Source of the DNA: Bifidobacterium breve
GTDB lineage: Bacteria > Myxococcota_A > UBA796 > SXON01
Length of the DNA stretch: 64,000 bases
Direction of reading: 5' to 3'
Assembly (NCBI GenBank): GCA_943328795.2
Contig: CALQBK020000002.1
Coordinates: 2,513 to 66,512 of the forward strand
Made by a program: the position numbers and the translations under genes. Below are positions 25,010-61,349 of the stretch, piece by piece (the first letter of the stretch is position 1; every line of letters begins with the position of its first letter). The notes under the pieces are model-generated. The model did no database searches. It saw nothing but the letters and a program-made list of their open reading frames with translations, and was not told the origin of the DNA.

Positions 25010-25102
25010 CGCCGAACGGGCGTACTCCCGGCTACCACCGCCCCACCCCCCCGTAGACCCGCCGCCTCGCACCCTGTACGTTGTGGCACCGTAAGGGCTG
25101 TC

Positions 25103-34196: not shown

Positions 34197-34403
34197 TCAA
34201 TCGACGTAGCCGAGATCCTGCATCCACCGCTCGTACTCCTCCTTCGGGATGTCGTTCATCGCGCGGTCGGCGAGGGCCTGCTCGTGCTGTCGTTGCCAGT
34301 ACACGCCTGCCCCAGCGGCTACGCCCGCGAGCACGAGCGCGAAGAACAGGCGACGACGGGCTTGCGGAGTGAGCTTCACGCAGGCAACATAGCCCGGACG
34401 CAT
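34197..34403 (-). CDS. Hypothetical small single-pass membrane protein (start uncertain)
   Basis: RRRLFFALVLAGVAAGAGVYW TM helix. The track start 34463 would overlap the divergent peptidase start, so ATG 34403 is preferred. Confidence 0.35.
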   Translation of the reverse strand: MRPGYVACVKLTPQARRRLFFALVLAGVAAGAGVYWQRQHEQALADRAMNDIPKEEYERWMQDLGYVD

Positions 34404-38227: not shown

Positions 38228-38234
38228 CGCGCGC

Positions 38235-39452: not shown

Positions 39453-41290
39453 GACTGGTTCCCCTTGGAGCGGCGAGCCCGGACGCGCAGCATGCCGCCG
39501 AGAAGGACGAGCGCGGGCACCCCGAGGCTGGTCCCGTAGAACCACATGGCCTCGCCCTCCTTCGTGTGTTGGATCTTGATGTCCTCCTCGGTCTCGGTCT
39601 CCCCGGTGAGCGCAGGGTCCTGCGTCAGCCAGCCGACGGTGGACACGAGGTACACCGCGTTCGCCTGGTTCCGCAGGATGGCGTTGGACATCCACGTAGC
39701 GTCGCCCACGGTCGCGGCGCGCCACTCTTTCCCGCCGTCAGCGGGGCCGCTCGCGACGCTCGCGATCTCCCAGCCGCCGCGCTTCTCGCCGGCCATCGCT
39801 ACGGTGCCGTCGGCCGCGGGCTTCGGGTCCTTGTCGAACTCGAAGTTGCCGTTGGTGTCGGCCCACCACTCGGGCATGCCCTTCAGGATGTTGGTGACCT
39901 TGCCCGGGTGGTCTTGCAGCTCGGCGATGCTCCCGACCCCCGGCGCGATGAACGTGGCCTGCGCGGCGTTCTTCGACAGCGTGGTGACGGACTCGTGCGA
40001 GCTGTACTTGTTGCTGCCGACGAATGCGCGGTCGCCCGGCCCGCCGGTCACCTTCAAGTAGGACTTGTCGGAGAGCAGCGGCAAGTCCCCGAAGCCGACG
40101 CCGGCCAGCGCCGCCACGGCGGGGTCGCTGATGTCGTCCGGCCCGGACGCGGGCTCCATGCTGATGAACAGCGCGCCGCCGCGGTCGCGGTAGTCTTGGA
40201 GCGCCTTGATCTCCTCGGGGAGGAACAGGCGCTTCGGGCCGACGATGAACACCATCGCGGCGTCGTCCGGAACGGCCTGGGCGAGCCCGGAGCCTGCGCC
40301 GAGCTCCTTCACCTTCAGGTTCAGGCCCTCGAGGAGGGTCTTCGCCATCGCGATGTTCCCGAAGTCATTCGCGGCGTTCTTCCAGTACAGCTCCTCGTGG
40401 CCGACGGTGAAGTACACCGTGCGCTTGTCGCGCGCGATCTTCAAAAGGGCGGTCTGCACCTTGCTGTCGAGCTTGCGCAGGTCCTTCCGGGCCTTGTCGA
40501 TGTCGTCGTCGAGCTTGATGGACTCGGTCTGCTCGTCGTCGCCGGTGCCCTTCACGAGCACGATGGTGCCGTTGTCCTTGACCTTCCAGGCCTTGGCCTG
40601 TTCGGGGTCCATCGTCTGGTCCATGACCTCGATCGACAGGTTCGCGCCGGCCAAGTCGTCGAAGTACGGGCGGACCTCGCGGAGGACCTCGCTCGTGGGC
40701 GGGAAGAACAAGACGACCCGAAGCGGCTCGGCGAGGCTGTCCACCGCGGCGCGCGTAGAGGTCCCGACCGCGGTGGTCTTGAAGAAGCCGAAGTCCCAGC
40801 GCTTGTTGTTCTCGGTGGCCAGGTAGTTGATCGGGAAGAGCATCGCGAGGCCGAGGGCGACCGCGAGGCCGCCTTCCAGGGCGTTCCGCAGGCGGCCGGG
40901 GTGGACGCTGTGGGGGCTCGCGGAGAGCGTCGAGTCAATCGCGAAGGCCGGCAGGGCGCCGACCAGCCAAACGAGCGGCACGAGCGCCTGGAGGCCCACC
41001 TGGACGTGCCCGGCGGTCTCGAGCGAGAGCCCGAGCATCCCGACCGAGTCCTTGAGGGACGCGACGTACACGACCCCGGAGGACATCGACACGACGAAGA
41101 AGCCGACCGCGAGCCGTGTCGCCGACGGGTGGCGTCCCCAGCTGGAGGCGCGCGACAGGATCGCGGCTGCGGCCAACGCGAGCCCGAGCAGGATCAGCGG
41201 CCACCGGACGGCGTCGTTGCCGGAGAACATGCGCTCGGCGCAAAAGACCGAGAGGCTACCGACTAGGTAGAGGATGCTGGGGGTGCTCAT
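39449..41290 (-). CDS. GldG-like ABC transporter auxiliary protein (ABC_transp_aux) with extra N-terminal multi-TM region
   Basis: VVLFFPPTSEV..., TVYFTVGHEE..., AMVFIVGPK..., C-terminal TM anchor. ATG 41290 overlaps the permease stop (ATGA). Confidence 0.8.
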   Translation of the reverse strand: MSTPSILYLVGSLSVFCAERMFSGNDAVRWPLILLGLALAAAAILSRASSWGRHPSATRLAVGFFVVSMSSGVVYVASLKDSVGMLGLSLETAGHVQVGLQALVPLVWLVGALPAFAIDSTLSASPHSVHPGRLRNALEGGLAVALGLAMLFPINYLATENNKRWDFGFFKTTAVGTSTRAAVDSLAEPLRVVLFFPPTSEVLREVRPYFDDLAGANLSIEVMDQTMDPEQAKAWKVKDNGTIVLVKGTGDDEQTESIKLDDDIDKARKDLRKLDSKVQTALLKIARDKRTVYFTVGHEELYWKNAANDFGNIAMAKTLLEGLNLKVKELGAGSGLAQAVPDDAAMVFIVGPKRLFLPEEIKALQDYRDRGGALFISMEPASGPDDISDPAVAALAGVGFGDLPLLSDKSYLKVTGGPGDRAFVGSNKYSSHESVTTLSKNAAQATFIAPGVGSIAELQDHPGKVTNILKGMPEWWADTNGNFEFDKDPKPAADGTVAMAGEKRGGWEIASVASGPADGGKEWRAATVGDATWMSNAILRNQANAVYLVSTVGWLTQDPALTGETETEEDIKIQHTKEGEAMWFYGTSLGVPALVLLGGMLRVRARRSKGNQS

Positions 41291-42012
41291 TCCCACCTCC
41301 GTGCGATCAAGGAGCGCGTAGCGAGCAGCAGGAACGCGAAGCTGACCGAGGCGAAGAACACGACGCCCTCGGTGTTGATCCTTCCTTCCTGGAAGGGCTG
41401 GAACTGCTTGTCGAAGAATGCCATGTACGCGAACAACCCCTTGAACGGCGGGTCAAGGACCCGCGAGAGCATCCAGCAGAGCACGAAGAACAGGGTGCCC
41501 GCCGCGCCGATGATCAGCGCCACGAGCTGGTTCCGGCTGATGGACGAAGCCCACGTGCCGATGGCGATCCCGGTGGCGCCCAGCAGCGTGACCCCGAGGT
41601 ACCCGACGGCGATCTGCTCGGGGCTGACCTTGCCGTTCACGAAGATCATCGCGGGCATGTAGGCGGTCAGCACCAGGAAGAGGGCGAGGAACATCAGGCC
41701 CGAGAGGTACTTGCCGAGCACCGACTGGAGCTCGGAGAGCGGCGAGGACTCGAGCAGCACGATGGTGCCGGTCTGCCGCTCCTCCGCGAACAGCCGCATG
41801 GTGATCGCGACGCCCGCGAACAGCACGATGCCGCCGGTCAAGAAGAAGAAGTCCGTGAGGACCTCCGCCGACAACCGCGCTGTCGACGACAGCGCGAACG
41901 CGTTGAACAGCACCCCGTCCACCAGCAGCGCCAGCGACAGGATCAGCCAACCCCACATGGTGTTGATGAACGCCGAGAAGTCGCGGCGCGCGATCAGCCA
42001 GATACCGCTCAC
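41287..42012 (-). CDS. ABC-2 type transporter permease (GldF-like)
   Basis: Six hydrophobic helices, FAEERQTGTIVLLESSP motif. GTG overlaps the ATPase stop (GTGA 42009-42012). Confidence 0.85.
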   Translation of the reverse strand: MSGIWLIARRDFSAFINTMWGWLILSLALLVDGVLFNAFALSSTARLSAEVLTDFFFLTGGIVLFAGVAITMRLFAEERQTGTIVLLESSPLSELQSVLGKYLSGLMFLALFLVLTAYMPAMIFVNGKVSPEQIAVGYLGVTLLGATGIAIGTWASSISRNQLVALIIGAAGTLFFVLCWMLSRVLDPPFKGLFAYMAFFDKQFQPFQEGRINTEGVVFFASVSFAFLLLATRSLIARRWE

Positions 42013-42950
42013 TGTGCACTCTCCTTCGTGAGTCCGAGGAAGATCTGCTCGAGCTCCCCTTCGTCTTCCACCAATCGACGAACCCCTACGCCCGCCTGGG
42101 TCAGCGCCACGACCAGCGCTTCCCGGCCGTCCCCCGAGGTGCTCGCCCCGAGCGTGACGTGCGCGCGAGTGAGCCCACCGGCCTCTTCCCGCGTGTCCGA
42201 AGCGACGACGCCGGCGATCGCAAACGCCCTCGCGATGGCGTCCGCGCTGCCGCGCAGCAACGCCGTGACCCGCCCGCCCCCGCCCGCCCGGGCGGCCAGC
42301 TCCGCCTCGGTCCCGGCGGCGACGATCTTGCCGCCGTTGAGGACGATCAGGCGGTCGCAGGTCTCGGAGATCTCCGAGAGGATGTGCGAGCTGATGATGA
42401 CGGTAGCGTCCTTGGCGAGGTTTCGGATGACCTGCCGCATCTCGACGATCTGCTTCGGGTCGAGCCCGGAGATGGGCTCGTCGAGGATGACGACGCTCGG
42501 CTTGTGGATGATCGCCTGGGCGATGCCGCAGCGCTTGCGGTAGCCGTGGGACAGTTCGCCGATCACCTGGTGCTGCCGGGCCGTCAGCTGCGCCGTGGCC
42601 AGCACCGCGTCGAGCCGTGCGTTCACCGCGCTCGCGGCCATGCCCTTGAGCTGGCCGCAGTAGCCGACGAACTCGCGGACGGTCATCTCTTTGTAGAGCG
42701 GCGGGTCCTCGGGCAGGTACCCGATGCGGGCCCGGAACTGGGCGCCGGCGTTCACGAGGTCGGCGCCGTCGATCGTGACCGTCCCGCCCGTGGGCACCAG
42801 CAGGCCGGCGAGCACCTTCATCGTCGTGGACTTGCCTGCGCCATTGAGGCCCAGCAGGCCTACGCACTCGTTCTGCTGAATCGTGAACGAGAGCCCCTCG
42901 ACTGCGCGGCGGTCGCCGTACCAGTGCGAGAGGCCTTCAACCGTGATCAT
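42009..42950 (-). CDS. ABC transporter ATP-binding protein (GldA-like)
   Basis: Walker A GLNGAGKST, signature LSHGYRKR, Walker B VVILDEP. About 90-aa C-terminal extension. Confidence 0.94.
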   Translation of the reverse strand: MITVEGLSHWYGDRRAVEGLSFTIQQNECVGLLGLNGAGKSTTMKVLAGLLVPTGGTVTIDGADLVNAGAQFRARIGYLPEDPPLYKEMTVREFVGYCGQLKGMAASAVNARLDAVLATAQLTARQHQVIGELSHGYRKRCGIAQAIIHKPSVVILDEPISGLDPKQIVEMRQVIRNLAKDATVIISSHILSEISETCDRLIVLNGGKIVAAGTEAELAARAGGGGRVTALLRGSADAIARAFAIAGVVASDTREEAGGLTRAHVTLGASTSGDGREALVVALTQAGVGVRRLVEDEGELEQIFLGLTKESAQ

Positions 42951-43087
42951 GGGGATTCCGGGTACAGGGGAAGAATGCGGACAAGCGGTGAGCTGAGTGA
43001 GCCCCGGGGCTGTCGCGGGCTGGCCAATTAGTCGAACCACCGGGAGCCGCAAGGGCTGGCCCTGTCATGACGTGTTTAATCTCGCGC

Positions 43088-46134: not shown

Positions 46135-47328
46135 CTACTCCAACACGGGATCGCAGGTTGCTGGTCCGTCCGACGAGCGCCACGAGCCGGTGAGCACGGT
46201 CACGACACCCCCCGCGGGGCAGGTGATCTCGACGACCGGGCAGTGGTTGCCGCTGCCGCAGCCGTCGTCATCGCTGCCGAGGGCCTGGTACGAGTAGCAG
46301 GGGTTGTCCGCGCCGTCGCAGACCCGCATGACGGGGTCGCCCTCGCAGGTGTCCGTACAGCCGCCGCTGCAATCGGCCTGGACCGGGTCTCCCGGCGTGC
46401 AGGTGTAGTTTCCGACGAAGGTCCACCCGCAGTCCCGGGTCTCGCTCGAGTCGTTGCCCGAGCACGCGTCGGTGACCGCCGGCATGTCCTCGGCGTCGAC
46501 CACGGTGTAGGTCGCGTCGGCCGTGTTGTTCGAGTAGTCCAGCTCGGGGATGATCGACTGGAAGTTGACGGCCGCGTGCACGTCGTAAGTGCCTGCGGGC
46601 ACGTCCGTGATGTCGATCCACTGGCAATCCAGGTAGCCGCTGTAGGTGTCGGCCCACCCTTGGGAGATGCCCTGCTTGTCGCAGTTGTAGCGGGCGCGGG
46701 GGCGCGCGTCGTCGGTCCAGGGCTCGAAGTCCTCGAGGCAGAACGCCTGCTTGTGACCCTCGGCGACCTGGTTCGAGTCGGCGTCCAGCAGGGTGTACTG
46801 TGCGTAGCCGTCGAAGTGGTAGTGCTGGTGGCACTCCGAGTAGTGGAAGAGCGGGTTGCCGGTCGGGTCACCGAATTTCAGGTCGGACGTGCCGTAGTTC
46901 GGCGTCGTCAGGTCAAATCGCAACAGCCGGCGCCACCCGGGCTGCAGCACGCACCCCTCGACGATCGTGCAGTCGTCCTCCTCGAAGTACTTCCACTCCT
47001 CGACGAGCCCGTCCTGGAGCCGCTCCTGGTCGGCCGCCAGGTCGGGGAGCGGGCACGTGTCGTCCACGGTCGTGGTGCAAACGGGGGTCGCGGTGTCCTC
47101 GCAGCACTCGGTGCAGCACGCCGTCCCGGTGGGGCACAGGTCGGCGGCGGGGTCACACGCGTCGCCCTCGGAGAGCGCGGGGGACTCGGAGTCATCGCCA
47201 CCGTTGCCTCCATTTCCGCCGTTTCCACCTTCGCTGTCATCCACCGTTGGCGTAGTGGTGCGGCAAGCGAACAGGGACACGAGGCCAAGGGCGAGGAGCA
47301 TGAAACGACCTGGAAGGGGCGTCAGCAT
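46135..47328 (-). CDS. Lysyl oxidase (LOX) family copper amine oxidase, lipoprotein
   Basis: RRLLRFDLTTPNYGTSD, SECHQHYH (Cu His), AEGHKQAFCLED, QGISQGWADTYSGYLDCQWIDITDVPAGTY, PELDYSNN. These are colinear with the human LOX catalytic domain as I remember it. Lipobox LVSLFAC; GGNGGNGGNGG linker. Confidence 0.92.
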   Translation of the reverse strand: MLTPLPGRFMLLALGLVSLFACRTTTPTVDDSEGGNGGNGGNGGDDSESPALSEGDACDPAADLCPTGTACCTECCEDTATPVCTTTVDDTCPLPDLAADQERLQDGLVEEWKYFEEDDCTIVEGCVLQPGWRRLLRFDLTTPNYGTSDLKFGDPTGNPLFHYSECHQHYHFDGYAQYTLLDADSNQVAEGHKQAFCLEDFEPWTDDARPRARYNCDKQGISQGWADTYSGYLDCQWIDITDVPAGTYDVHAAVNFQSIIPELDYSNNTADATYTVVDAEDMPAVTDACSGNDSSETRDCGWTFVGNYTCTPGDPVQADCSGGCTDTCEGDPVMRVCDGADNPCYSYQALGSDDDGCGSGNHCPVVEITCPAGGVVTVLTGSWRSSDGPATCDPVLE

Positions 47329-47376
47329 AGCCCACGGCCGGCCGCGAGGGCGTCAAGAAGCCCTGGACCCCTCGGC

Positions 47377-50214: not shown

Positions 50215-51534
50215 ATGTTGACCCTACTCGCCCTCTCTGCTTTCGCGGCCGACCCTGAGCCCGCGGCCGCCGCTGTCCCCGCCCCCCAAGCCGTCGCGCC
50301 CGAGAGCGCGGAGGTCGACGCGCCTGCGCTCGCCGAGGAGGGCGACGGGAACGGCGCCGTCCCCGAGGCTGGCGGCGGCCGAGGCCGTGGCAACCACGGC
50401 GGGCGGCAGGGCCACGGCGGGCCCCCGGAAGAGGCGAAGTTCCGGCTCGGGGGCGTCTTCCAGACGAACTTCGTCGCCGAGCACCTGGAGCGGAACGGGG
50501 ACCCCGCGTACGCGGCGAACCCCCCGCGCCCGACGTTCACGGTCGCCCACTTTCGGCCCAACGCCGAGCTCGACGCTACGCCTTGGCTCGACGTGCGCGC
50601 TGGCGTCGAATTCGCCGCGATCCCCGACAGCCCGCCCGTGGACCCAGAGATGCTGGGTGACGCGCTCGCCGTCTCCGGCACCGACGAGACCATCCTCGAC
50701 CCGTCGCTCGACGAGCTCTTCGTTCGCTTGCACGTCGGCCGCAACGTGCGCCAGAACGTCAAGATGGGCGTCATGCACACCTCCTTCGGCCTGCGCGACG
50801 ACTACGACCGCTACGACCACTTCTTCCTCGGCGGGCAGCTCGCGTACATGGAGCCCGAGCGGCGGTTCGGCGTCTCTCCCGGCATCGACATCGGCGTTGG
50901 GTACCGGCTGGCGTGGAAGGACCTCGGCGCGCTCGACCTGCAGCTGATCAACGGATCGGGCGTGAGCAAGCTGGACTCCACCGCGGCGAAGGACGTCGTG
51001 GCGCGGCTCTCGGTCACCCCCTTGCGCGTGTTCGACCTGCGCGGTTCGATCATGCACGCGGGGGACGCGACCGACGGCCACACGCACGGCGCCGTGTCGC
51101 TCGAGGTCAACACCGAGCGCTTCGCGCCCGCGTTCAACCCCCGTGTGGTCGGCGAGGCGCTCCTGTCGCGCGTCGTCGAGGGCGGCGCGGTGACCGACCG
51201 GTTCGGCTGGTTCGTCGCCGCCGCGACCGATGTCCCGCTGCACACGTCCGTCACGGACCACCTGTCGGTGATCGGCAGCTACAGCTCCTTTGACCCCGAC
51301 TTCATCGTCGGTGGCCCCGACACCGAGGCGAGCTTCGACCAGCAGTGGTTCCTGGACGCCGGCGCCAACGTGTACTGGAACACCGAGGGCAAGAAGCAGG
51401 GCGCGCGGCACGAGGTGCGCGAAGGCGAAGGCGTGGTCGCGTTCACGGGGATCACCTACGAGATGCTCACGCCCCAGAACGCGGAGCTGCCGGTCTCGCA
51501 CAGCGTGACTGTGCAGTGTGGGATCTCGAAGTAG
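50215..51534 (+). CDS. Porin-like outer membrane beta-barrel protein
   Basis: Signal MLTLLALSAFAA. Acidic/Gly linker, then long alternating beta-strand pattern resembling phosphate-selective porin O/P-type proteins. Confidence 0.6.
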   Translation: MLTLLALSAFAADPEPAAAAVPAPQAVAPESAEVDAPALAEEGDGNGAVPEAGGGRGRGNHGGRQGHGGPPEEAKFRLGGVFQTNFVAEHLERNGDPAYAANPPRPTFTVAHFRPNAELDATPWLDVRAGVEFAAIPDSPPVDPEMLGDALAVSGTDETILDPSLDELFVRLHVGRNVRQNVKMGVMHTSFGLRDDYDRYDHFFLGGQLAYMEPERRFGVSPGIDIGVGYRLAWKDLGALDLQLINGSGVSKLDSTAAKDVVARLSVTPLRVFDLRGSIMHAGDATDGHTHGAVSLEVNTERFAPAFNPRVVGEALLSRVVEGGAVTDRFGWFVAAATDVPLHTSVTDHLSVIGSYSSFDPDFIVGGPDTEASFDQQWFLDAGANVYWNTEGKKQGARHEVREGEGVVAFTGITYEMLTPQNAELPVSHSVTVQCGISK

Positions 51535-51536
51535 GG

Positions 51537-52112
51537 GTGATCTTCCTCCTGGCGTGCCACGCCCCGCGCCCCGTGGTGCTGGAGCCTGACGGCGCCGCGC
51601 TGCTCGAGGCCGCCGAGGCCGAGGCCGCTCGCTTGGTGCCCGACGCCGCCCGGGGCGGTCCGCCGCTCGTGCAATTTGCGAGCCCGTTGCCTCCGTTTTC
51701 GGGGGTCAGCCGGTCCACGGCTCGCTACGTCGGGGAGGCCGCGTGCGCCCCTTGCCACGCGTCGGCCGCTGCGACCTGGGACGCCAGCGCACACGCCTCG
51801 GCCTGGGCCGCGCTGGAGGGGGCGTCCGCGGGCCAGCGCGCGGACTGCGTCGGCTGCCACGCGACCGGGTACCGGCAGCCCGGCGGGTTTCGCGACCCGG
51901 CGGCATCGTCCCTCGCCCTCGGGCAAGTGGGCTGCGAGGCGTGCCACGGGCCGGGATCCGACCACGTCGCGGCGTGCGCGGACGATAGGGACGCCGACGG
52001 ATACGGGGAACTACCAAGTTCAGACGCGGCTTGTGTGGGATGTCACAGCTGGGAGCGGTCGCCGGACTTTCGCTGGGCGGCGGCGTGGCCGATCATCGCA
52101 CACGGTCTATAA
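51537..52112 (+). CDS. Tetraheme c-type cytochrome (cytochrome c554-like); start uncertain
   Basis: Four CXXCH: CAPCH, CVGCH, CEACH, CVGCH. YVGEAACAPCHASAAATWDASAHASAW is the c554-like opening. GTG 51537 lies 2 nt after the porin stop but leaves only a 7-aa VIFLLAC leader. Confidence 0.82.
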   Translation: MIFLLACHAPRPVVLEPDGAALLEAAEAEAARLVPDAARGGPPLVQFASPLPPFSGVSRSTARYVGEAACAPCHASAAATWDASAHASAWAALEGASAGQRADCVGCHATGYRQPGGFRDPAASSLALGQVGCEACHGPGSDHVAACADDRDADGYGELPSSDAACVGCHSWERSPDFRWAAAWPIIAHGL

Positions 52113-52122
52113 GAGTATCTGA

Positions 52123-52160
52123 GTTGTAAAAACGTTCGGGACCCATATACAACACAGTTG
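52123..52160. promoter_or_regulatory. Candidate operator/promoter region upstream of the metal-uptake genes
   Basis: Most AT-rich intergenic stretch in the window. GTTGTA(52123-52128)...TACAAC(52148-52153) inverted repeat and CAACacaGTTG (52150-52160) palindrome. Confidence 0.25.
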
Positions 52161-52182
52161 CAGTACGTGGTATGCGTGCCGA

Positions 52183-53283
52183 ATGCACACCATCCTGGTC
52201 TCGCTCCTCGCCTTCCAAGCTCCCGCGTTGGCCGAGGACGGCGCGGGCCAAAGCTTCTTGTCCGCGATGAACCCGGGGATCTCCGCGAACGGGCTGTTCC
52301 TCGCGGGGGCTGAGCTCGACGACGGGGAGCTCGCTGCCCCGTCGTGGACCGGCGAGTCGGCGGACTTGCCCGGGAAAGGGGAGACCTTCGGCACGGGGCT
52401 CTCGGTGCAGGAGATGGAGGTGCAGCTGACCTCTGCGGTCGACCCGTACTTCAAGGCCAACATGGTGCTCGCTATCCCCGGGACCGAGGGGCTGGAGGTC
52501 GAGGAGGGGTTCGTCACGGTGACGGCCGTGCCCCGCTTGCTCGTGAACATCGGCAAGATCAAGGAGCCGTTCGGCCGGGAGAACGTGACCCACACGCACG
52601 CGTTGCTCACGATCGACAGGGCGCTGGTGTCGCAGCGGGTGTTCGGCGAGGAGGGGCTCAACGACGTCGGGGTGAACGCGCAGCTGCTGCTCCCGCTGCC
52701 GTGGTACTCGCAGCTCACGCTGGGGGTGGACGCCGGCCAGAACGAAGGCGTGCTCGGATCGGGTGACGCCGGGGGCTTCGGGTACCTCGCGCACTGGAAG
52801 AACCTGGTGGACCTGGGTGACAACTACAGCGTCGAAGTCGGCGCGTCGGGGCTCTCGGGGCTCGACGACATCGGCGGCCAGAGCGTCGTTGGCGGCGTCG
52901 ACGTGACGGTGAAGGGCCACGGCTCCGCGCGTCACCAGTGGAACCGGCTCGTGTGGCAGAACGAATTCATCTTCGCGGACAAGGGGCGGGCGCCTTCGGC
53001 GAGCAAGCCAGGCCAGCAGATCGGCGGCCTGTACTCGACGCTCGAATACTCCTTCACGAAGCGGTTTTGGCTCGGCGGGCGGTTCGACATGGTCGGCCTG
53101 CCGAAGCCGGTGGACGGCGGGCAGACGTTTGGCGCGACGGCAATCGCCGTGCTCGCCCCCACCGAGTTCTCGTGCTTCCGCCTCCAGGCCCAGCGCCAGT
53201 TTCTGCCGGGCGGTCACACGGCCGACTCGCTCACCGGCCAACTCAGCTTCGTCATCGGGGTCCACCCCGCGCACTCTTACTGA
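52183..53283 (+). CDS. Outer membrane beta-barrel protein linked to the metal ABC transporter
   Basis: Signal MHTILVSLLAFQAPALA. Beta-strand periodicity; C-terminal aromatic (...HPAHSY). Immediately upstream of the ZnuA-like gene. Confidence 0.6.
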   Translation: MHTILVSLLAFQAPALAEDGAGQSFLSAMNPGISANGLFLAGAELDDGELAAPSWTGESADLPGKGETFGTGLSVQEMEVQLTSAVDPYFKANMVLAIPGTEGLEVEEGFVTVTAVPRLLVNIGKIKEPFGRENVTHTHALLTIDRALVSQRVFGEEGLNDVGVNAQLLLPLPWYSQLTLGVDAGQNEGVLGSGDAGGFGYLAHWKNLVDLGDNYSVEVGASGLSGLDDIGGQSVVGGVDVTVKGHGSARHQWNRLVWQNEFIFADKGRAPSASKPGQQIGGLYSTLEYSFTKRFWLGGRFDMVGLPKPVDGGQTFGATAIAVLAPTEFSCFRLQAQRQFLPGGHTADSLTGQLSFVIGVHPAHSY

Positions 53284-53293
53284 TCGAGGTCCC

Positions 53294-54208
53294 ATGTTCT
53301 CTACTCCCCGTGCTTCTACCGCTCTTCCGCTGCTCCTCGGGGCGGTGTTCAGCTCCCCCGCGCTCGCAGCCGTCAACGTCGTCACCACCACGCAAGACCT
53401 GGCGTCGCTCACCGAGGCGGTGGGCGGGGCGAACGTGAAGGTCGCCTACATCGCCCGTGGGGATCTCGACCCCCACTTCGTCGACGCGAAGCCGTCCTAC
53501 ATGCTGAAGCTCTCCAGCGCGAACCTGGTGATCGCCGTTGGCATGGAGCTGGAGATCGGCTGGCTGCCATCGCTCCTCTCCGGCTCGGGCAACCCCCGCG
53601 TGCAGTCCGGCACGTCCGGCTACCTCGAGGCCTCCGCCGCGATCACCCCGATCGAGGTCCCGACGGGCTCGATTGACCGGTCCCGCGGCGACCTCCACCC
53701 CCAGGGGAACCCGCACTATTGGCTCGACCCTGAGAACGGGCGCAAGGTCGCGCGGCTCATCGAGCAGCGGCTGGAGCTCGTCGACCCCGGAAACGCCGCC
53801 AGCTACAAGGCCAACCTGGCGTCGTTCGAGAGCTCGCTGACCACGAAGGAGGCGAGCTGGAGCGCGTCGATGGCGAGCCTCAAGGGCTCGAACGTGATCG
53901 GCTACCACTCGACGTTCGACTACTTCGCCAAGGCCTACGGGATGAACGTCGTCGGGTTCGTGGAGCCACGGCCGGGCATCCCACCTACGCCGCAGCACAC
54001 GCTCGAGCTCATCCAGCTGGGCAAGACCTCCGCGGTCAAGCACATCTTGGTCGAGACCTTCCACAGCGGCGCGGACGCCGCGCCGATCGCCAGCGGCGCC
54101 GGCGCGAAGGTCGACACGCTCCCCAGCAGCGTAGGCGGCGCCACCGGCGTCGACTCGTACCTGGGCCTCTTCGACACCATCGTCCGCATCCTCACGACCG
54201 GAGCGTAG
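53294..54208 (+). CDS. Metal (Zn/Mn) ABC transporter substrate-binding protein, ZnuA/TroA family
   Basis: Signal peptide, VVTTTQDLASL, DLHPQGNPHYWLDPEN, YHSTFDYFAKAYGM. Confidence 0.9.
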   Translation: MFSTPRASTALPLLLGAVFSSPALAAVNVVTTTQDLASLTEAVGGANVKVAYIARGDLDPHFVDAKPSYMLKLSSANLVIAVGMELEIGWLPSLLSGSGNPRVQSGTSGYLEASAAITPIEVPTGSIDRSRGDLHPQGNPHYWLDPENGRKVARLIEQRLELVDPGNAASYKANLASFESSLTTKEASWSASMASLKGSNVIGYHSTFDYFAKAYGMNVVGFVEPRPGIPPTPQHTLELIQLGKTSAVKHILVETFHSGADAAPIASGAGAKVDTLPSSVGGATGVDSYLGLFDTIVRILTTGA

Positions 54209-54211
54209 GCC

Positions 54212-55066
54212 ATGTACGACATCGCCATGTTCTTCTTGCCCGCGTTCGTCGCGTGCCTGGTGCTGCTCGGCATCCACGTGTACCTTGGGATCCACGTCAT
54301 CACGCGCGGGGTCATCTTCGTGGACCTCGCGCTGGCCCAGATCGCGGCGCTGGGCGCGATGTGCGGGCTGTTCGTTGGCGCTGAGCCGGGGAGCACCGAG
54401 AGCTACTTCGTCTCGCTCGGGTTCACCTTCGTCGGCGCGATCCTGTTCACGCTCGCGCGTTCGCAGGCGAAGCGAGTGCCCGTGGAGGCCTTCATCGGCA
54501 TCGTCTACGCGGTCGCGAGCGCGGTCGCGATCATCGTGGCGAACAAGGGCCCGCACGGCGCCGACGAGATCCAGCAGATCATGGTCGGGAGCTTGCTCGT
54601 GGTCACCCCCGAGCGCATCGCCGTGACCGCCGGGGTGTACGTCGTGATCGCAGCCATCCACTACGCCTTCCGCGAGAAGTTCCTGCGGCTCTCGTTCGAT
54701 CCCGAGGGCGCCGAGCGGTCGGGGATGTCGATCGCGTGGTGGGATCTCGCGTTCTACGCCACCTTCGGCGTCGTGATCTCGCTGTCGGTGACCATCGGCG
54801 GCGTCCTCCTGGTGTTCACCTTCCTGGTCGTTCCCACGGTCATCGTCGCGCTGTTCACCCAGGGCGTCGGCCGGCGGCTGCTGGCCGGCTGGGGCGTCGG
54901 GCTGGTCGGTAGCGTGCTTGGCCTCGCCGCCTCGTACGAGTTCGATGCGCCGACGGGCGCGGCGGTGGTCGCGACGTTCGGCTCACTGCTCGCGGTGGCG
55001 CTCGTCGCGCGCGTGCTCATCCCGGGCGAGATCCAGACCGACTTGAGCTCGGGCAGCCACCACTGA
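54212..55066 (+). CDS. Metal ABC transporter permease, ZnuB/TroC family
   Basis: 8-9 TM helices with the ABC-3 family pattern (GVIFVDLALAQIAALG..., VFTFLVVPTVIVAL). Confidence 0.9.
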   Translation: MYDIAMFFLPAFVACLVLLGIHVYLGIHVITRGVIFVDLALAQIAALGAMCGLFVGAEPGSTESYFVSLGFTFVGAILFTLARSQAKRVPVEAFIGIVYAVASAVAIIVANKGPHGADEIQQIMVGSLLVVTPERIAVTAGVYVVIAAIHYAFREKFLRLSFDPEGAERSGMSIAWWDLAFYATFGVVISLSVTIGGVLLVFTFLVVPTVIVALFTQGVGRRLLAGWGVGLVGSVLGLAASYEFDAPTGAAVVATFGSLLAVALVARVLIPGEIQTDLSSGSHH

Positions 55067-55087: not shown

Positions 55088-56611
55088 CTACTTGGCCGCC
55101 GCCGCGTGAGAGATCCGCGGGAGGTAGGCCAAGAAGTCGAACCGGCCGTCGTCCTGGGTCGCGTCGTGGCAGCCCGTGCACGTCGCTGCGGTAGGCGTCG
55201 CCATCGGCGTAGCCGGGTTCACGACGTGCTCCTTCCCGGGCCCGTGGCAGCTCTCACAGCCGACGTTGGAGAGTGACCCGACCTCGCCCGGCGCGTGGGG
55301 GCCGAGCACCTCGCCGCTCCAGGGCACCGCGCCGGTCGCGTGGCAGGCGAAGCACGCCTGGTCGAGCTGGCGCTTCTTGCCGACGAGGGACGCCCAGGCG
55401 CGCGCGTGGGCCGTGCCTTGCCACTGGGTCGCCTGGCTGGCGTGGCACGCTGAGCAGGCCTTGCTCCCGACGTAGGGCCCGAGCACGGGCGCTGTCGGCG
55501 AGGAGGACACTAGCGCGTTGATCCGCTCCTTCGCGGCGTCCACCATCGCCTGGACGGCCGAGTCGTCCTTCACCGCGGTGTCGAGCGTGACCAGCGTGTT
55601 GTGTGCGGTGTGCGCGCGCTGGCTCACCGCGGTCGCCGCTTGCAGCTGTGCCTCGGCCCCCGCCGCCTCCTTCGCGTAGAACTCCGCCCGGCGCAGCGCG
55701 ACGTCCTTGTCCCGCTCGCCGTTCGCCTTCTCGGCGTCCGCCTTCGCTTGCTTGACCTTCTCGTTGTAGCGGTCGCGCTGCTCGGCGAGCCGCCCCAGCG
55801 TGCTGTCCTCCCGCCACGCAGTCGCCCCCGGGGTGAGCGTAAAGCTCAACACGCCGACGTCGCGCCCGCGGGTCCCTGGGCCAAGCTGGAGCCCGCCACC
55901 CGGGGCAGGGTCCGGGCTCGCCAGCGGCTGCAGGGTGCCGCCCACCACCAGGTCGATCCCCGGCACCGCCTTGAGCAGGCCGTCGCTCGGCTCGTCAGCC
56001 AGCGCGTCCAGGAGCACGATGACGTCGACGGGCGCCGCCCGGAGCCGCGCCACGCCGTCGCGGATGGCCGCCTGTGGATCCGTCGCGGTGCAGCCGGGGA
56101 ACAGCGCGCGGTCGTTCACCGCGCCGAGCACGCCAACGTGGAGGCCGGACTTTTCGATCACGAGGTCTTTCGCCGGGAAGCCGCCGCCACAGTCCAAGTT
56201 GCTCGCGACGTACGGGAGCCGGTGCTCCTCGGCGAGCGCGCGCACGAAGTCCACGCCCAGCGCCACGTCCCCCTCTGCGAGCAGCATGGCGTCGATGCCC
56301 GATGCGTCCACCGCGGCGGCCATCAGTCGTGCCTTCTCTTGCTGCTGGGGCTTCTCCTGCGACGTCAGCCGCGAGCTCTTCCAGTAGAGGTTGCCGCCGT
56401 CGACGACGAACACGGGGCTATCGCCCGCCGTGGTGCGGGCCTCGTGGATCGTCGTTGCGCGTCGGGGCAGACCGCCCGTGGGGTGCTTGGGTCACCCACA
56501 GGGTTCGATTTCACCGTCCCAGTGTGCGGTGTAGATCAACGTCGCCGTCGAGGCGGGAGCGGCGGGGTGGCACGCGGCGAGGCCGAGGAGGAGGAGGCCG
56601 GTGGGGATCAT
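55088..56611 (-). CDS. Lipoprotein with degenerate 5'-nucleotidase-like domain fused to a tetraheme c554-like domain. Contains one in-frame TGA (56492-56494): candidate selenocysteine, or a nonsense-disrupted gene.
   Basis: Same frame from ATG 56611 (ATGA overlap with the upstream stop) to TAG 55088. N-terminus MIPTGLLLLGLAAC (lipobox) ...LIYTAHWDGEIEPCG-TGA-PKHPTGGLPRRA...VFVVDGGNLYW. C-terminal CSACH, CFACH, CESCH, CTGCH. Confidence 0.7.
56463..56494 (-). other. SECIS-like stem-loop immediately 3' of the in-frame UGA
   Basis: UGA CCC AAG CAC CCC ACG GGC GGU CUG CCC CGA. C17GGGC21 pairs with G27CCC(C)G32. The apex GGUCU, within the heptamer GGUCUGC at nt 22-28, is the same heptamer and spacing as recalled for E. 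coli fdhF. Confidence 0.5.
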
Positions 56612-58161
56612 GGCTGACTCGGGGGCGACGGGGGCTGGGGGAGGGTCGGAGGCGCGCCGGGGCGGCGCTCCTCTTCGATGCGGTTGGTGCGCTCGTCCTT
56701 CTCGTCGTCGCCCGTGGCCTTGCGGCGATGCTCACGCACCAGGTCTTTCACGACCTCGAGCGCGCCGGAGTCGACCAGGTACACCTCGTCGTGGTCCAGC
56801 ACCCGCGCGTAGTACCGGGGGCGGTCCGGCTGGTCGTGCACGGTGCGCGGCGGACCCGGATCCCCGAGCAGCAGGGTCCGATCGACGCCGTCCAAGTCCT
56901 GCATCCGCACCCGCACGAGCGGGTGGTCGAAGCCGTACTTCGCGTCGTCAGCGGAGGCGGAGACGAACTCGTCGGCTTCTATGCCTGCTGTTCTCTGGGC
57001 GACGCGCTTTGGCGTGGACCCCGCGACCGGCACGCCGTCCTCCCACTGCCAGCTGTCCGCGGCCATCCGGACGGTCACGGTGCCGTTCAACGTGGCGTCT
57101 TCGCCCGTCGCCCCGTCGAGCGTCGCGACGATCTGCGAGACCCGGTTCGGGTCCATCCGGCCAAACCGCATGAGCCGGTAGGTCGAGGGCTCGCGCGCGT
57201 AGTCCTCGAGCAGCCCGTTTCGCGCGGTGTACACGCTCGGCTCCTCGGCGAGCCGCACGTAGGCGAGGTCGTAGTCGCCGTCCTTCTCGGGCGCGGGCCC
57301 GCCGACGAGCAGCGTCATCGGCTCGCGGCCGGAGAACGTGAGCTCGACGGTGAGCAGTGGAGCGTCAAGCCCGAACGTGTGCAGGTCCGCAGGCGTCGGG
57401 GTGTCCGTCACGAACTGCACGGCCTTGAGCGCAGACACGCGCCCCATCAGGCTGCGAACGCTGTCGTCGCTGGCCGCGAAGCGCTCGGGCTGCAGCAGGT
57501 CCCACGCGTGCTCCCCGGTGCGCTGGAAGCGCAAGTGCATCCCGCTTTGCGCCTTCACGTCGAGGGCATCGACGTCTTTCGAGTCGAAGCTCGCGAAGCG
57601 GCGCTCGCGGAACTCCGACAGCGAGAGTGAGTAGTAGTCCACCGCGGACTTCTTCACGGTGAAGATCACGTCCCCGGGTGTCGGGTGGATGTAGAAGCTG
57701 ACGCCGGAGGGGTTGGGGTCGCCCGCCTCGAACGTGTGCACCGACCCGTCGCGGAACGTGAGCGTCACGCGGATGGCGCTGTTCCCAAGGCCGTAGAGCG
57801 CGGCGTCGCCGGTGCTGTCGACCACGGTGGCCCGGCTGACCAGGTCGTGCAGCTGGTGCTTCACGCGGTTGACCATCGATCGGCTGGCCGGTAGGCTCTG
57901 CCCGTTGGCGCCCTCGGAGCCGTCGATCCACCACCCATCGGGCTTCTCGACGAGCGTGATCGCGCCGTCGGGCCGCTCGACGTTCACCTTGACCAGGTCG
58001 TTCTTCTCGAACGCGAACAGCGCGACGCCCTCGTCGTGCTTCTTGCCTTTTGCTGTGCCGGGCGTGACCGGGGCCGGCCGCGTCGCGAACCACGTGCCGG
58101 CTACCGCCGCGAAGACGACCAGGGCGACGAGCGCCCCCCGGAATTGGCGCAGGTACTGCAT
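56608..58161 (-). CDS. DUF4340-like protein (operon 2)
   Basis: N-terminal TM anchor (LVALVVFAAVAGTWF), repeated modules (YGLGNSAIRVTLTFRDGSVHTFEAGDPNP...; FGLDAPLLTVELTFSGREPMTLLVGG). One-base overlap TGATG with the upstream gene. Confidence 0.75.
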   Translation of the reverse strand: MQYLRQFRGALVALVVFAAVAGTWFATRPAPVTPGTAKGKKHDEGVALFAFEKNDLVKVNVERPDGAITLVEKPDGWWIDGSEGANGQSLPASRSMVNRVKHQLHDLVSRATVVDSTGDAALYGLGNSAIRVTLTFRDGSVHTFEAGDPNPSGVSFYIHPTPGDVIFTVKKSAVDYYSLSLSEFRERRFASFDSKDVDALDVKAQSGMHLRFQRTGEHAWDLLQPERFAASDDSVRSLMGRVSALKAVQFVTDTPTPADLHTFGLDAPLLTVELTFSGREPMTLLVGGPAPEKDGDYDLAYVRLAEEPSVYTARNGLLEDYAREPSTYRLMRFGRMDPNRVSQIVATLDGATGEDATLNGTVTVRMAADSWQWEDGVPVAGSTPKRVAQRTAGIEADEFVSASADDAKYGFDHPLVRVRMQDLDGVDRTLLLGDPGPPRTVHDQPDRPRYYARVLDHDEVYLVDSGALEVVKDLVREHRRKATGDDEKDERTNRIEEERRPGAPPTLPQPPSPPSQP

Positions 58162-59618
58162 CAACGGCCCCTCCGGTTCAGCCACACGCCGAGCGCGGCG
58201 AGCCCTACGAGCGACGGCGAGAGGCCGATGCTCAGCCACTGGATCCACGTCCGGTCTTCGTCCGTCAGCGCGAGGCGACGGACCTTGCTCGGGCGCCCGA
58301 CCACCGACATCCGGGCGTCGTCCCCGACCAGCCAGCGCACCGCGTTGATGGCGAAGCTCTGGTTGCCCGGGCCCTCGGCCATCACCGCGTTGCTCAACAG
58401 GTCGGCGTCGCCGAGCACGACCACGCGGCCGGCCTTCTTCTTCACGAGCGAGCTGTCGGACGAGACGTCCAGGGCGAGCGCCATCGCGACCGGGCCCGGG
58501 CCGTCGATGTCGGCCTGGTGGATGGCCTGCCCGTTCTCGGAGGCGCCGCCGCGCTCAATCCAGCCGTTGCGCCCTGTCTCCAAGAGCGTCGAGCTCCGGA
58601 CGCCGGGGATCGCCGGCACGCTGGCTTGGACCGGGGCGGCCCGGCTGACCACCGTGATGAGGTCGTCCGTCAGCAGGTCCTGGGTGATCGCGTGGCTCCG
58701 GTAGCGTGGGATCGGGCGATCCGGGTACGGGTAGAGCAGCTTCTCGTCGAGCACGTAGCCGCTCGGGACGACAACCCCGAAGCGGCCAAGCAGGTCGGGC
58801 ACTTCCCCGTCGGGCTCGACGGCGACCAGCAGCGCGCCGCCTGTCGAGAACCACGCCAGCAGCAGGTCCTCCTCGAGCGCGGGGATCGCGACGGTCGGCC
58901 GGACGACGAGCACCGCTGCGGCGTCGGGCGGCACGCGGGGCGCCTCGCCCGCCTCGTGGTCGCGGGCCAGGTCGAGCGCCTTGAGCTGGTAGTGCTCCTG
59001 GTCGAGCCCGGCGGCGAGGTCGGCCAGGCCCCCAGGGTCCTGGCTGTCGGGGCTCATCTCCCCGTGGCCGACCAGCGCGTACACCGTCTTTCGGGTGTCG
59101 GACGCCAGCTGGGAGAACCCTCGGCTGAGCGCGGCCTCCCCGAGGAACTCGATGTGCTTGTCTGCCCCCTTCCCGGCGCGGCGGAACAGCTCCCGGTCGG
59201 AGAGATCGACGCGTCGCTGCCCCCGTTGGATGACGACCGTGCTGTACTCGGTGACGCCAAGCGACTCGGCGGTGAGCCTGTCCTTGTCGAAGTCCACAAA
59301 ACGGGTGGTGACGCTGGCCGAGTTGTAGTCGAGCTCCTCGAGCAAGTCCGACAGCGCCTGGTCCTTGTACCGCGAGTCGTCTTTGCCCCGCTGCGCCGTG
59401 AACCCGGTGATCGTGACGGCTTCGCCGTCGGAGTCCAATAGCCGGAGCTTGTTCCGCGTGTCCGGCAACAGCGTGCTGCCCTGGTCCGACGAGAGGTCCA
59501 GGCGGACGCGGTACGTGTCGGCGAACAACCACCCCACGACCAGCGTGGCGACCACGAGGACGGTGACGAGCGTCGCGTTCGAGCCGAACGCGAGGCGGCG
59601 CTGCATCGCGCGGTTCAT
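58161..59618 (-). CDS. GldG-like ABC transporter auxiliary protein (operon 2); alternative ATG at 59624
   Basis: N- and C-terminal TM anchors, TITGFTAQ..., TVYALVGHGE..., AVLVVRPT..., VVVLGDADLLSN. ATG 59618 overlaps the permease stop (ATGA). Confidence 0.8.
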   Translation of the reverse strand: MNRAMQRRLAFGSNATLVTVLVVATLVVGWLFADTYRVRLDLSSDQGSTLLPDTRNKLRLLDSDGEAVTITGFTAQRGKDDSRYKDQALSDLLEELDYNSASVTTRFVDFDKDRLTAESLGVTEYSTVVIQRGQRRVDLSDRELFRRAGKGADKHIEFLGEAALSRGFSQLASDTRKTVYALVGHGEMSPDSQDPGGLADLAAGLDQEHYQLKALDLARDHEAGEAPRVPPDAAAVLVVRPTVAIPALEEDLLLAWFSTGGALLVAVEPDGEVPDLLGRFGVVVPSGYVLDEKLLYPYPDRPIPRYRSHAITQDLLTDDLITVVSRAAPVQASVPAIPGVRSSTLLETGRNGWIERGGASENGQAIHQADIDGPGPVAMALALDVSSDSSLVKKKAGRVVVLGDADLLSNAVMAEGPGNQSFAINAVRWLVGDDARMSVVGRPSKVRRLALTDEDRTWIQWLSIGLSPSLVGLAALGVWLNRRGR

Positions 59619-60334
59619 CGCCATCGACGGGACTCCAACGAACGGAACGTGAGGAACAGGAAGATGAAGGTGAACACCACGAAGTACAGGACGTCCGCCG
59701 AGTCGAGCACGCCTCGCTCGAACGACTCCAGGTGGCGGAGGACGCCGAACCGCTGCACCGCCGCGGCCCAGTCTGCCGGCAGCAGCGCCTCGGCTTGGTG
59801 GACGAGCCAGAACGGGAGCAGGATCATGATCCCGAGGAGCCCGGCGGCCACTTGGTCGTCCGTGAGCGACGAGGCGAACAGCCCGGCGGCGGAGAAGCCG
59901 CACGCGACCGCGACGAGGCCGAGGTAGCTGCACGCGATGACACCCCAGTCGGGGTCCCCGTAGTACCCGAGGATCACCGGGAACACGCCCGTGCCGGCGA
60001 GCATCAGGAGGCACAGCGTGAGCGAGGCCAGCCACTTTCCGACGACGATCGAGGACAGCGGCACCGGCGCGGTGAGCAAGAGCTCCAGCGTGCCTTGCCG
60101 GCGCTCCTCCGCGAAGTGACGCATCGTCAGCATCGGCAGCACGAAGAGCTGCGTGACCGCGAGGTTTGCCAGCAGCACTCGCAGCGAAGCTTCGCCGGTG
60201 AGGGAGATGCCGAGGTAGAAGAACAGCCCGGACAACACCAAGAAAGTGCCGAGGAACACGTAGGCCAGCGGGCTGACGGCGTACGACCGCAGCTCTTTCT
60301 TCCAGATGGTCCAAGCGCCGCGCAACCCCGTCAT
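59615..60334 (-). CDS. ABC-2 type transporter permease (operon 2)
   Basis: Six TM helices, FAEERRQGTLELLLTAP motif. ATGA overlap with the ATPase stop (60331-60334). Confidence 0.86.
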   Translation of the reverse strand: MTGLRGAWTIWKKELRSYAVSPLAYVFLGTFLVLSGLFFYLGISLTGEASLRVLLANLAVTQLFVLPMLTMRHFAEERRQGTLELLLTAPVPLSSIVVGKWLASLTLCLLMLAGTGVFPVILGYYGDPDWGVIACSYLGLVAVACGFSAAGLFASSLTDDQVAAGLLGIMILLPFWLVHQAEALLPADWAAAVQRFGVLRHLESFERGVLDSADVLYFVVFTFIFLFLTFRSLESRRWR

Positions 60335-61275
60335 CCGGCCTTCCCCTGGGTCACGCCCTCTTCTCCGACGATGTCGATGAACGCCTCTTCGAGCGTCGCC
60401 AGCCGGGCCTCGACGGCGCGGACGTGGCCCCCCGCGGCCACCACCCGGTCCACGAGCCCCTGGCGCACGTCGTCCCGGCTCATCACCCGGAACGCGGGCC
60501 AGCCCGAGTCCACGCTCGCGAGCGGCTCCACTTGGTCCACGCCCGGCGTGGTCGCGAGCTGCCGGGCGTCGATGCCCTGGGCCTCGATGAACGTCCAACT
60601 CCCGCGCTTCGCCCGGCGTTTCAGCTCGGCGAGGGTGCCTGACGCGAGCACCCGGCCGCGACCGATGACGATCGCGCGCGGGCACAGCGCCTCGACTTCC
60701 TGCAGCACGTGCGTGGACAAGATCACGGTGTGCGACGTCGCCAAGTCCTGGATCAGCGCGCGGATGCCGACCATCTGCGTCGGGTCGAGCCCGCTCGTCG
60801 GCTCGTCGAGGATCAGCACGGGCGGGTCGTGCAGCAGCGCCTGCGCCAGCCCCACGCGCTGCCGGTACCCCTTCGACAACGAGCCCAGGATGCGCGCTTC
60901 CCAGCCGCCGAGGCCCACGCGCTCCATCACCGCGCCCGTCTGCGAGCGGCACGCTCTCCCGGTCAGCCCGCGGAGCTCCCCGACGAACGCCAGGTACTCC
61001 CCGACGGACAGCTCCGGGTAGAGCGGCGGGGACTCCGGCAGGTACCCAACCCGGCGCTTGACCTCCATCGGGCTCTCGAACACGTCGAAGCCCGCGACCT
61101 TGACCTCCCCGGCGTTGGCCGGCAGAAAGCCGGTCAGGATGCGCATCGTGGTCGTCTTTCCGGCGCCGTTCGGCCCGAGGAAGCCCACGATCTCCCCCTT
61201 GCCGACCGAGAACGAGACGTCCGTGAGGGCAACGGTGGGTCCGAAGGACTTGGAGATACCGATCGCTTCGACCAT
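60331..61275 (-). CDS. ABC transporter ATP-binding protein (operon 2)
   Basis: Walker A GPNGAGKTT, signature LSKGYRQR, Walker B VLILDEP. ATG 61275 preceded by a purine-rich GGGAAGAAGG. Confidence 0.94.
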   Translation of the reverse strand: MVEAIGISKSFGPTVALTDVSFSVGKGEIVGFLGPNGAGKTTTMRILTGFLPANAGEVKVAGFDVFESPMEVKRRVGYLPESPPLYPELSVGEYLAFVGELRGLTGRACRSQTGAVMERVGLGGWEARILGSLSKGYRQRVGLAQALLHDPPVLILDEPTSGLDPTQMVGIRALIQDLATSHTVILSTHVLQEVEALCPRAIVIGRGRVLASGTLAELKRRAKRGSWTFIEAQGIDARQLATTPGVDQVEPLASVDSGWPAFRVMSRDDVRQGLVDRVVAAGGHVRAVEARLATLEEAFIDIVGEEGVTQGKAG

Positions 61276-61349
61276 GCGCCTTCTTCCCATCCTTCTCGCC
61301 GGAGCAGGCCGGGTGGGCGTCCTATCGTGCCCGGCGTTATCGAGCGACG

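Follow-up and report, generated by a model that had tools for sequence, protein, structure and literature searches.

An UshA-like tetraheme gene with a probable selenocysteine UGA at the end of an ABC-2/DUF4340 operon

Gene structure at the locus

We analyzed a 64,000-nucleotide stretch of contig CALQBK020000002.1 (GenBank assembly GCA_943328795.2), hereafter the window, and focused on a minus-strand gene at positions 55088-56611 that encodes an UshA-like protein with a C-terminal tetraheme domain and that very probably contains a UGA codon for selenocysteine (Sec). The reading frame extends from ATG 56611 to the TAG at 55090-55088 and comprises 508 codons (507 residues plus the TAG). Its sole internal stop is the TGA at 56494-56492, directly after Cys38-Gly39, which makes the predicted Sec codon 40 of the gene. 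The translated N terminus reads MIPTGLLLLGLAACHPAAPASTATLIYTAHWDGEIEPCG up to this TGA and continues with PKHPTGGLPRRATTIHEARTTAGDSPVFVVDGG after it. The features of the gene are listed below in window coordinates.

55088..56611, minus strand: complete UshA-like (seleno)protein gene (translation; NF041198 match over profile positions 13-518 of 519)
56608..56611, minus strand: ATGA start/stop overlap with the upstream DUF4340 gene (sequence)
56570..56611, minus strand: short putative signal peptide MIPTGLLLLGLAAC with lipobox L-A-A-C, Cys14 (read from the sequence, not from a signal-peptide predictor)
56492..56500, minus strand: Cys38-Gly39-Sec40 (TGT GGG TGA), proposed redox-active C-G-U site (translation; homologue column is Cys or TGA)
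56463..56479, minus strand: hairpin resembling a selenocysteine insertion sequence (SECIS), +16 to +32 from the U of the UGA (family-wide synonymous conservation; likeness to fdhF)
55487..56542, minus strand: N-terminal 5'-nucleotidase/UshA/SoxB-like domain with degenerate metal motifs, plus a helical linker (profile search of PDB; AlphaFold model of the relative P0031)
55091..55486, minus strand: C-terminal tetraheme cytochrome c554-like domain (Pfam; profile search of PDB)

The program-made list of open reading frames (ORFs) gives this gene as 55088..56413, a product of 441 aa with a GTG start. A preliminary description of the locus had pointed out that this start leaves the protein without a signal peptide, that a 508-codon frame from ATG 56611 has a single in-frame TGA after Cys-Gly, that the ATG overlaps the DUF4340 stop as ATGA, and that the C terminus holds four CXXCH heme sites. 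All four observations were borne out by translation, the sequence and the ORF list, the heme motifs being CSACH, CFACH, CESCH and CTGCH. The listed gene model is wrong, since a start at GTG 56413 loses both the signal peptide and the active-site Cys-Gly-Sec.

Upstream of the lipobox, this frame offers no ATG, GTG or TTG codon other than ATG 56611 until its preceding stop is reached. The DUF4340 product ends in ...PPSQP, with its TGA inside the ATGA overlap, and overlapping start/stop junctions also occur in two relatives, L001 and L004. The ATGA overlap suggests translational coupling with the DUF4340 gene. The N terminus, MIPTGLLLLG-LAAC, contains a match to the lipobox pattern [LVI][ASTVI][GAS]C and has no Lys or Arg in its n-region. 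Among relatives with a TGA at the same position (Sec-type genes), at least 53 of 87 had a lipobox or signal peptide by a strict regular expression and more were visible by eye. Judging from these sequence features, the UshA-like product is probably an exported lipoprotein.

We also compared the window gene with its closest relative, L001, by codon position. Differences at first, second and third positions numbered 3/1/13 before the TGA, 4/1/6 from the TGA to GTG 56413, and 20/19/86 in the remainder of the gene. Because these differences fall most heavily on third positions, the stretches treated as non-coding by the ORF list evolve as coding sequence in this frame. An ungapped codon comparison with L163 was out of register past codon 66, and that part was left out.

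The TGA column in homologues

The window protein, with U40 entered as C, matched the curated NCBIfam equivalog NF041198 (UshA_like_PCGU, UshA-like (seleno)protein) with 288.9 bits (E 6.8e-86) against a cut-off of 275. The P-C-G-U motif followed by GGLxRR is present near its N terminus (...EIEPCG, the TGA, then PKHPTGGLPRRAT), and the same motif occurs in relatives. When we searched 5.8 billion proteins, the first 10-20% of the query was missing from all of the 29 closest. At the DNA level, three of these "truncated" relatives (L001, L002 and L004; 83%, 46% and 41% identity) had TGA at the identical column, within a mini-ORF of 39-41 codons reading GEIEPCG-TGA-P[KR]HPxGGLxRR that lies in frame with the cytochrome ORF. 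The preliminary description had proposed an alignment of homologues at this column; in that alignment the three relatives carry TGA, and the full-length, more distant homologues carry Cys in the context ...EPCGC...GGLxR..., for example YIEPCGCTSNPLGGLPRMAT and TEPCGCKQRPLGGVSRRAK. The motif ...EPCGC...GGLxRRA, which it had given for related proteins, is thus real. One full-length relative, P0031, bears the NCBI name "UshA-like (seleno)protein".

We then scanned a metagenome collection for G-E-I-E-P-C-G-[TGA/TGC/TGT]-P, using a degenerate DNA pattern, and obtained at least 120 stretches. Among the matches listed, the column was TGA in 97, TGT in 12 and TGC in 11. With few exceptions the TGA genes continue without a further stop for about 450 codons of clearly homologous sequence. 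The TGA column is not a chance feature, because it recurs in 97 independent metagenome stretches among the matches listed. Four of five diverse TGA genes from the metagenomes passed the NF041198 cut-off, while the genes with TGT or TGC (Cys-type) form a separate subclade whose representative scored 255 against the same cut-off of 275. In this subclade (L088, L091, L100, L107, L113 and others; 23 loci) the corresponding sequence is GEVRGEIEPCGC-PTLP[YF]GGFxRR. The family is widespread and occurs in many marine and other metagenomes.

Gene callers split the Sec-type members (P0001-P0029; loci L001-L005) into an ORF of 39-41 aa and a "cytochrome" of about 440 aa, and the starts chosen for the truncated cytochrome ORF vary among relatives and are not homologous. 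The same split affects essentially every Sec-type relative that we examined in public protein sets. As a result, surveys based on annotation do not recognize these abundant proteins as exported and Sec-containing, and databases under-represent their true architecture.

A SECIS-like hairpin downstream of the UGA

The 42 nt starting at the UGA aligned without gaps in 88 distinct Sec-type genes, and we compared them with 63 Cys-type genes (23 + 40); these control loci came partly from a genome-collection scan with a CGC-containing pattern, which is able to return Cys-type genes only. Counting from the U of the UGA, Sec-type genes carry GGC-GGU-CUN-NCC almost invariantly at synonymous sites, and Cys-type genes do not. 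The Gly codon at +19 was GGC in 88/88 Sec-type genes, while all four Gly codons were used in Cys-type genes. At +22 the Gly codon was GGU in 84/88 Sec-type genes as compared to 2/23 and 5/40 in the two Cys-type sets, and codon +28 was NCC in 87 of the 88 and varied in Cys-type genes. As background in the same Sec-type genes, GGU accounts for 16% of Gly codons, and all four synonymous codons occur among the flanking Pro codons. AGR makes up 10% of Arg codons in the rest of these genes and 75% at codon +31.

In the window the upper stem would consist of G18-C30, G19-C29, G20-C28 and C21-G27, closing a loop of G22-G23-U24-C25-U26, and the constrained fold had an energy of -6.9 kcal/mol. All the invariant nucleotides are intact in the window, base for base with the family. 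Two pairing registers were seen in Sec-type genes: register A has G18, G27 and U/C28 with the loop GGUCU, and register B has a bulged C/U18 and G28 with the loop GGUCU[C/U]. Among loci L086-L205 they appear as CUG...CUG-[U/C]CC and CU[C/U]...CU[C/U]-GCC, so that the change of register ties the Leu wobble bases to Ser/Pro or Ala at codon +28. The wobble positions nt 18 and nt 27 were concordant in 84 sequences and discordant in 4, and U17 co-occurred with A31 among Sec-type sequences, both associations being uncorrected for phylogeny. The mean stem was 5.23 bp in Sec-type genes as against 4.05 +/- 0.13 bp after synonymous recoding of the same sequences, and it was 3.7-4.0 bp in Cys-type genes.

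The archetypal bacterial Sec insertion element is the SECIS of Escherichia coli fdhF, in which G23 and U24 of the loop are SelB contacts. The hairpin described here, like that of fdhF, lies directly 3' of the UGA within the coding sequence, and it shares with fdhF (UGA codon 140) the heptamer GGUCUGC at the same position, +22 to +28, with G23-U24 in the apical loop. Unlike the fdhF element, the window stem is short (4-5 bp), GC-rich and has no obvious bulged U, and relatives of the window gene fall into two registers, of which one leaves nt 18 bulged. The UGA at 56494-56492 is very probably decoded as Sec under the direction of this small hairpin, which starts about 15 nt downstream, presents G23-U24 in its loop and consists of the very codons that specify the conserved Gly-Gly-Leu motif. 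The argument for a SECIS comes from the family as a whole, because the conservation is family-wide, is specific to UGA-bearing genes and is shared base for base by the window.

As a separate observation, the minimum-energy fold of window positions 56465-56505 (minus strand) pairs CUGUGGGUG, which includes the UGA, with CACCCCACGGG at +10 to +20. By sequence this pairing is also available in L001, and it competes with the SECIS-like hairpin.

Evaluation of alternative explanations

Taken together, we put the probability that 55088-56611 is one gene with a Sec-encoding UGA at about 0.92. The features by which bacterial selenoprotein genes are recognized were found here, namely a UGA aligned with Cys of homologues, conservation of the UGA with conserved protein on both sides, and a downstream stem-loop. 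The proposal of the preliminary description, that a C-G-U motif with Sec links the tetraheme protein to the signal peptide of a lipoprotein, is accordingly supported by the NF041198 match, by the column that holds Cys or TGA and by a hairpin specific to Sec-type genes.

Several observations weigh against this assignment. No tRNA was found within the 64-kb window and hence no tRNA-Sec there; tblastn with the SelA, SelB and SelD proteins of E. coli found no match in the window or in 200 loci with short flanks; no SelA, SelB or SelD domain was detected in Pfam scans of about 50 window ORFs; and a scan for in-frame TGA based on GC content at third codon positions (GC3) revealed no second selenoprotein gene in the window. 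The NF041198 score exceeded the cut-off by only 14 bits, with U replaced by C. At the RNA level, the window stem has just 4-5 bp, which 42% of synonymous recodings matched, and the 91-nt region around the TGA folded with an unremarkable z of -0.09. One fixed pairing register fits just 77-79% of cells, RNAalifold on the 88 sequences yielded only a meaningless 2-bp consensus, and the covariation argument depends on two registers found in different sequences, with associations uncorrected for phylogeny. An Rfam scan of the region gave no match at gathering or permissive thresholds. As for what the protein does, we infer its redox mechanism, electron path and substrate, and our literature search found no functional study of the UshA-like selenoprotein family or of DUF4340.

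The preliminary description had left open a nonsense pseudogene, in which a Cys-type gene would have undergone a recent TGC/TGT to TGA mutation; a sequencing error would look the same. Cys-type homologues do exist, a single base change would suffice, and searching the 64-kb window gave no direct evidence of Sec machinery for this genome. A one-off mutation or sequencing error is, however, excluded because relatives at 83%, 46% and 41% identity share the TGA column, as do 97 metagenome stretches among the matches listed. Before and after the TGA alike, the peptide is conserved and the substitutions are coding-like, and the window has kept every invariant SECIS-like nucleotide. With the Cys in homologues, the hairpin confined to Sec-type genes and the NF041198 match added to this, we regard the pseudogene as effectively refuted. 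We considered it very improbable that the locus makes two products, a 39-residue lipopeptide ending at the TGA and a cytochrome initiated separately from GTG 56413, even though gene callers everywhere report that split, a 39-41 aa ORF followed by one of about 440 aa. The GTG-started protein would lack a signal peptide and yet carry four c-type heme sites, which need export; moreover, in-frame conservation extends over the 26 codons from the TGA to the GTG, which include the GGLxRRAT motif of the family. Cys-type homologues are single fused proteins and the NF041198 profile spans the junction, while the "second" ORF begins at varying, non-homologous positions in relatives.

Readthrough of the UGA without Sec, for example by near-cognate Trp or Cys decoding, or a silent relic in a lineage that has lost Sec decoding, would fit with the absence of visible Sec machinery in the 64-kb window and with the weak lower stem of the window hairpin, where C17 and C31 are mismatched. 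Against this, the TGA column alternates with Cys only, the hairpin equals the SelB-binding fdhF SECIS loop in sequence and offset, RNA-level conservation is confined to UGA-bearing genes, and the family is curated as a selenoprotein family, so we gave this explanation very little chance. Reassignment of UGA throughout the genome was ruled out since TGA is the normal stop of many window genes of clear identity (ATP synthase subunits, DUF4340, ABC-3). The four TGA candidates returned by the GC3-based scan were explained as the ATP synthase delta/alpha boundary, two antisense artefacts and a pair of adjacent same-frame genes at 34197-34199. The last of these (minus strand) is the stop codon of a small membrane protein, flanked by coding-like sequence, and is not a Sec site; in the same frame after it lies a Cys-rich ORF of 329 aa that has its own signal peptide and no Pfam match.

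Domain architecture and active site

The four heme motifs of the C-terminal domain are located at 55442-55456, 55340-55354, 55244-55258 and 55166-55180 (minus strand). Pfam Cytochrome_C554 (PF13435) matched this region at 4e-12, and the family alignment shows no variation at the Cys and His positions of the heme sites. When profiles that included the window sequence were compared with PDB, they matched SoxB (3e-23), 5'-nucleotidases (~1e-21) and cytochrome c554 (1bvb, 6e-21). We used the AlphaFold (AF2) model of the Cys-type member P0031, with a predicted local distance difference test score (pLDDT) of 91.3 and a predicted template modeling score (pTM) of 0.89, for a Foldseek search, which returned 5'-nucleotidase, CD73, UshA and SoxB structures at E ~1e-18. 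An UshA/5'-nucleotidase-like N-terminal domain followed by a multiheme C-terminal domain is therefore the architecture of the family, its predicted fold being confirmed on P0031 and not on the window protein itself.

The motifs of a catalytically active dimetal phosphoesterase (DxH, GD, GNH[E/D], GH and GHxH-type) are not retained by the window protein. Read by eye against the consensus of the hidden Markov model, GNHE is replaced by AEGD, GH by DA, GGH by GGT and GGD by GGN, and the DxH position reads H-W-D. The GG[LV]xRRAT motif just after C-G-U is kept. We do not expect the window protein to be a phosphoesterase, because the canonical ligands are replaced, a Cys-Gly-Sec follows strand 1 and a tetraheme domain is fused to the C terminus.

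Operon and conserved neighbourhood

The UshA-like gene is the last of five genes in an operon that begins with an ABC transporter ATPase. The four genes upstream of it are the following.

60331..61290, minus strand: ABC transporter ATPase, first gene of the operon (Pfam PF00005, 1e-31)
59615..60334, minus strand: ABC-2 type permease, upper coordinate approximate (Pfam ABC2_membrane families)
58161..59624, minus strand: ABC_transp_aux (GldG-like), upper coordinate approximate (Pfam PF09822, 9e-16)
56608..58248, minus strand: DUF4340 gene, directly upstream of the UshA-like gene (Pfam PF14238, 1e-46)

The true start of the DUF4340 gene is probably near 58160. This gene order is kept in L001, L002 and L004. 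Of the 49 Sec-type loci with enough flank, at least 28 have a DUF4340 homologue immediately upstream in the same orientation, compared to none of 17 such loci of the Cys-type subclade.

A second, paralogous minus-strand cluster lies at 38235-43064 and consists of an ABC ATPase (42009-43064), an ABC_transp_aux gene (39449-41452; a weak Pfam match, below cut-off) and a DUF4340 gene (38235-39737). It is followed by a gene for a glutathione S-transferase (GST)-like protein (37628-38341), not by an UshA-like selenoprotein. One genome thus has the ABC/DUF4340 module in two settings, one that includes the selenoprotein and one that does not.

On the plus strand, a cluster at 50215-55066 converges on the selenoprotein gene. 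It contains an unknown 439-aa ORF, a cytochrome c554-like gene (51345-52112), an unknown 366-aa ORF, a ZnuA gene (53129-54208) and an ABC-3 permease gene (54212-55066). These neighbours are also present in L001, so that a second c554-type cytochrome and metal uptake genes are conserved beside the operon in close relatives.

Proposed function

We infer with moderate confidence that in this family a degenerate 5'-nucleotidase/SoxB scaffold carries a Cys/Sec redox site wired to hemes. After export by the general secretory pathway and lipidation, the protein would be located in the periplasm, where the Cys38-Gly-Sec40 pair would adjoin or replace the former phosphoesterase metal site. Cys38 and Sec40 may cycle between the selenol/thiol and the selenenylsulfide forms, and the c554-like tetraheme domain may move electrons to or from this site. 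The protein would thereby act as a heme-wired chalcogen oxidoreductase on a dead phosphoesterase scaffold rather than as a hydrolase. For the substrate, a sulfur or selenium species is a plausible and reasonable first guess, given that no relative of solved structure is closer in sequence than SoxB.

The UshA-like protein would probably act together with the co-transcribed ABC-2/ABC_transp_aux/DUF4340 system. More specifically, we tentatively suggest that the Sec/tetraheme lipoprotein might be the redox-active terminal component of a dedicated periplasmic module with the ABC-2 permease/ATPase, ABC_transp_aux and DUF4340, a selenenylsulfide enzyme that would reduce or oxidise whichever sulfur, selenium or other chalcogen species the transporter handles; we hold this to be possible but rather doubtful. 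If it were true, the linkage to DUF4340 (at least 28/49 Sec-type versus 0/17 Cys-type loci) would be a first functional handle for both the selenoprotein family and the DUF4340/ABC_transp_aux systems. The conserved ABC-2/ABC_transp_aux/DUF4340 neighbourhood is in any case a usable lead to function, and it is rare for one family to unite four hemes and a C-x-U site with a degenerate phosphoesterase fold.

Relation to known families

The novelty implied by the preliminary description was overstated, since this family is already catalogued as a selenoprotein (PMC2398784, NF041198). A "COG0737, UshA-like" family with a CxU motif appears in the selenoprotein family table of the 2008 Global Ocean Sampling analysis (Zhang & Gladyshev, PMC2398784), with 76 Sec sequences from 20 samples and 92 Cys homologues. 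Reviews of 2022 and 2026 list "UshA-like protein, NF041198, CxU" and credit the 2008 paper (PMC9312934, PMC13188914). Our result is thus a corrected gene model and a further member of a known selenoprotein family, not a discovery, and knowledge of Sec decoding is unchanged by this case. Minor details that may be new are a SECIS built from Gly-Gly-Leu codons, the two compensating registers and the linkage to ABC-2/ABC_transp_aux/DUF4340.

The window protein shares with the NF041198/COG0737 CxU family the P-C-G-U motif, the UshA-like N-terminal domain, the C-terminal multiheme domain and the alternation of Sec and Cys, and nothing essential differs. It is a peripheral member, with 288.9 bits as against 330-405 bits for several marine members, and has lost more metal-ligand residues than some relatives in the family. 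With the SoxB thiosulfohydrolase and the UshA/CD73 5'-nucleotidases, which are dimetal calcineurin-like enzymes, it shares the fold of the N-terminal domain and the GG(V/L)aRxAT motif after the first strand, but its metal motifs are replaced, a Cys-Gly-Sec follows strand 1 and a tetraheme domain is fused at the C terminus. The tetraheme domain and its CXXCH pattern resemble those of cytochrome c554 of Nitrosomonas europaea (PDB 1bvb, 6e-21). That cytochrome is a free electron carrier of ammonia oxidation, whereas the tetraheme domain of the window protein is fused to a Sec-containing domain of catalytic type and is predicted to be tethered as a lipoprotein. The N-terminal region is also distantly related to NF049981, "UshA-like (seleno)protein family 2" (46.7 bits), but the score is far under the cut-off of 140 and the motif is CxU rather than the CxxU of that family, so the window protein is not a member.

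Other genes in the window

Two further loci were noted apart from the selenoprotein gene. An ORF at 46135-47352 (minus strand) had a strong Pfam match to lysyl oxidase (PF01186, 5e-38), a domain better known from animals. At 25010-28592 (plus strand), a DegT/DnrJ-type aminotransferase gene is followed by two adjacent radical SAM genes, which looks like a small modification or biosynthesis cluster with no relation to the selenoprotein.

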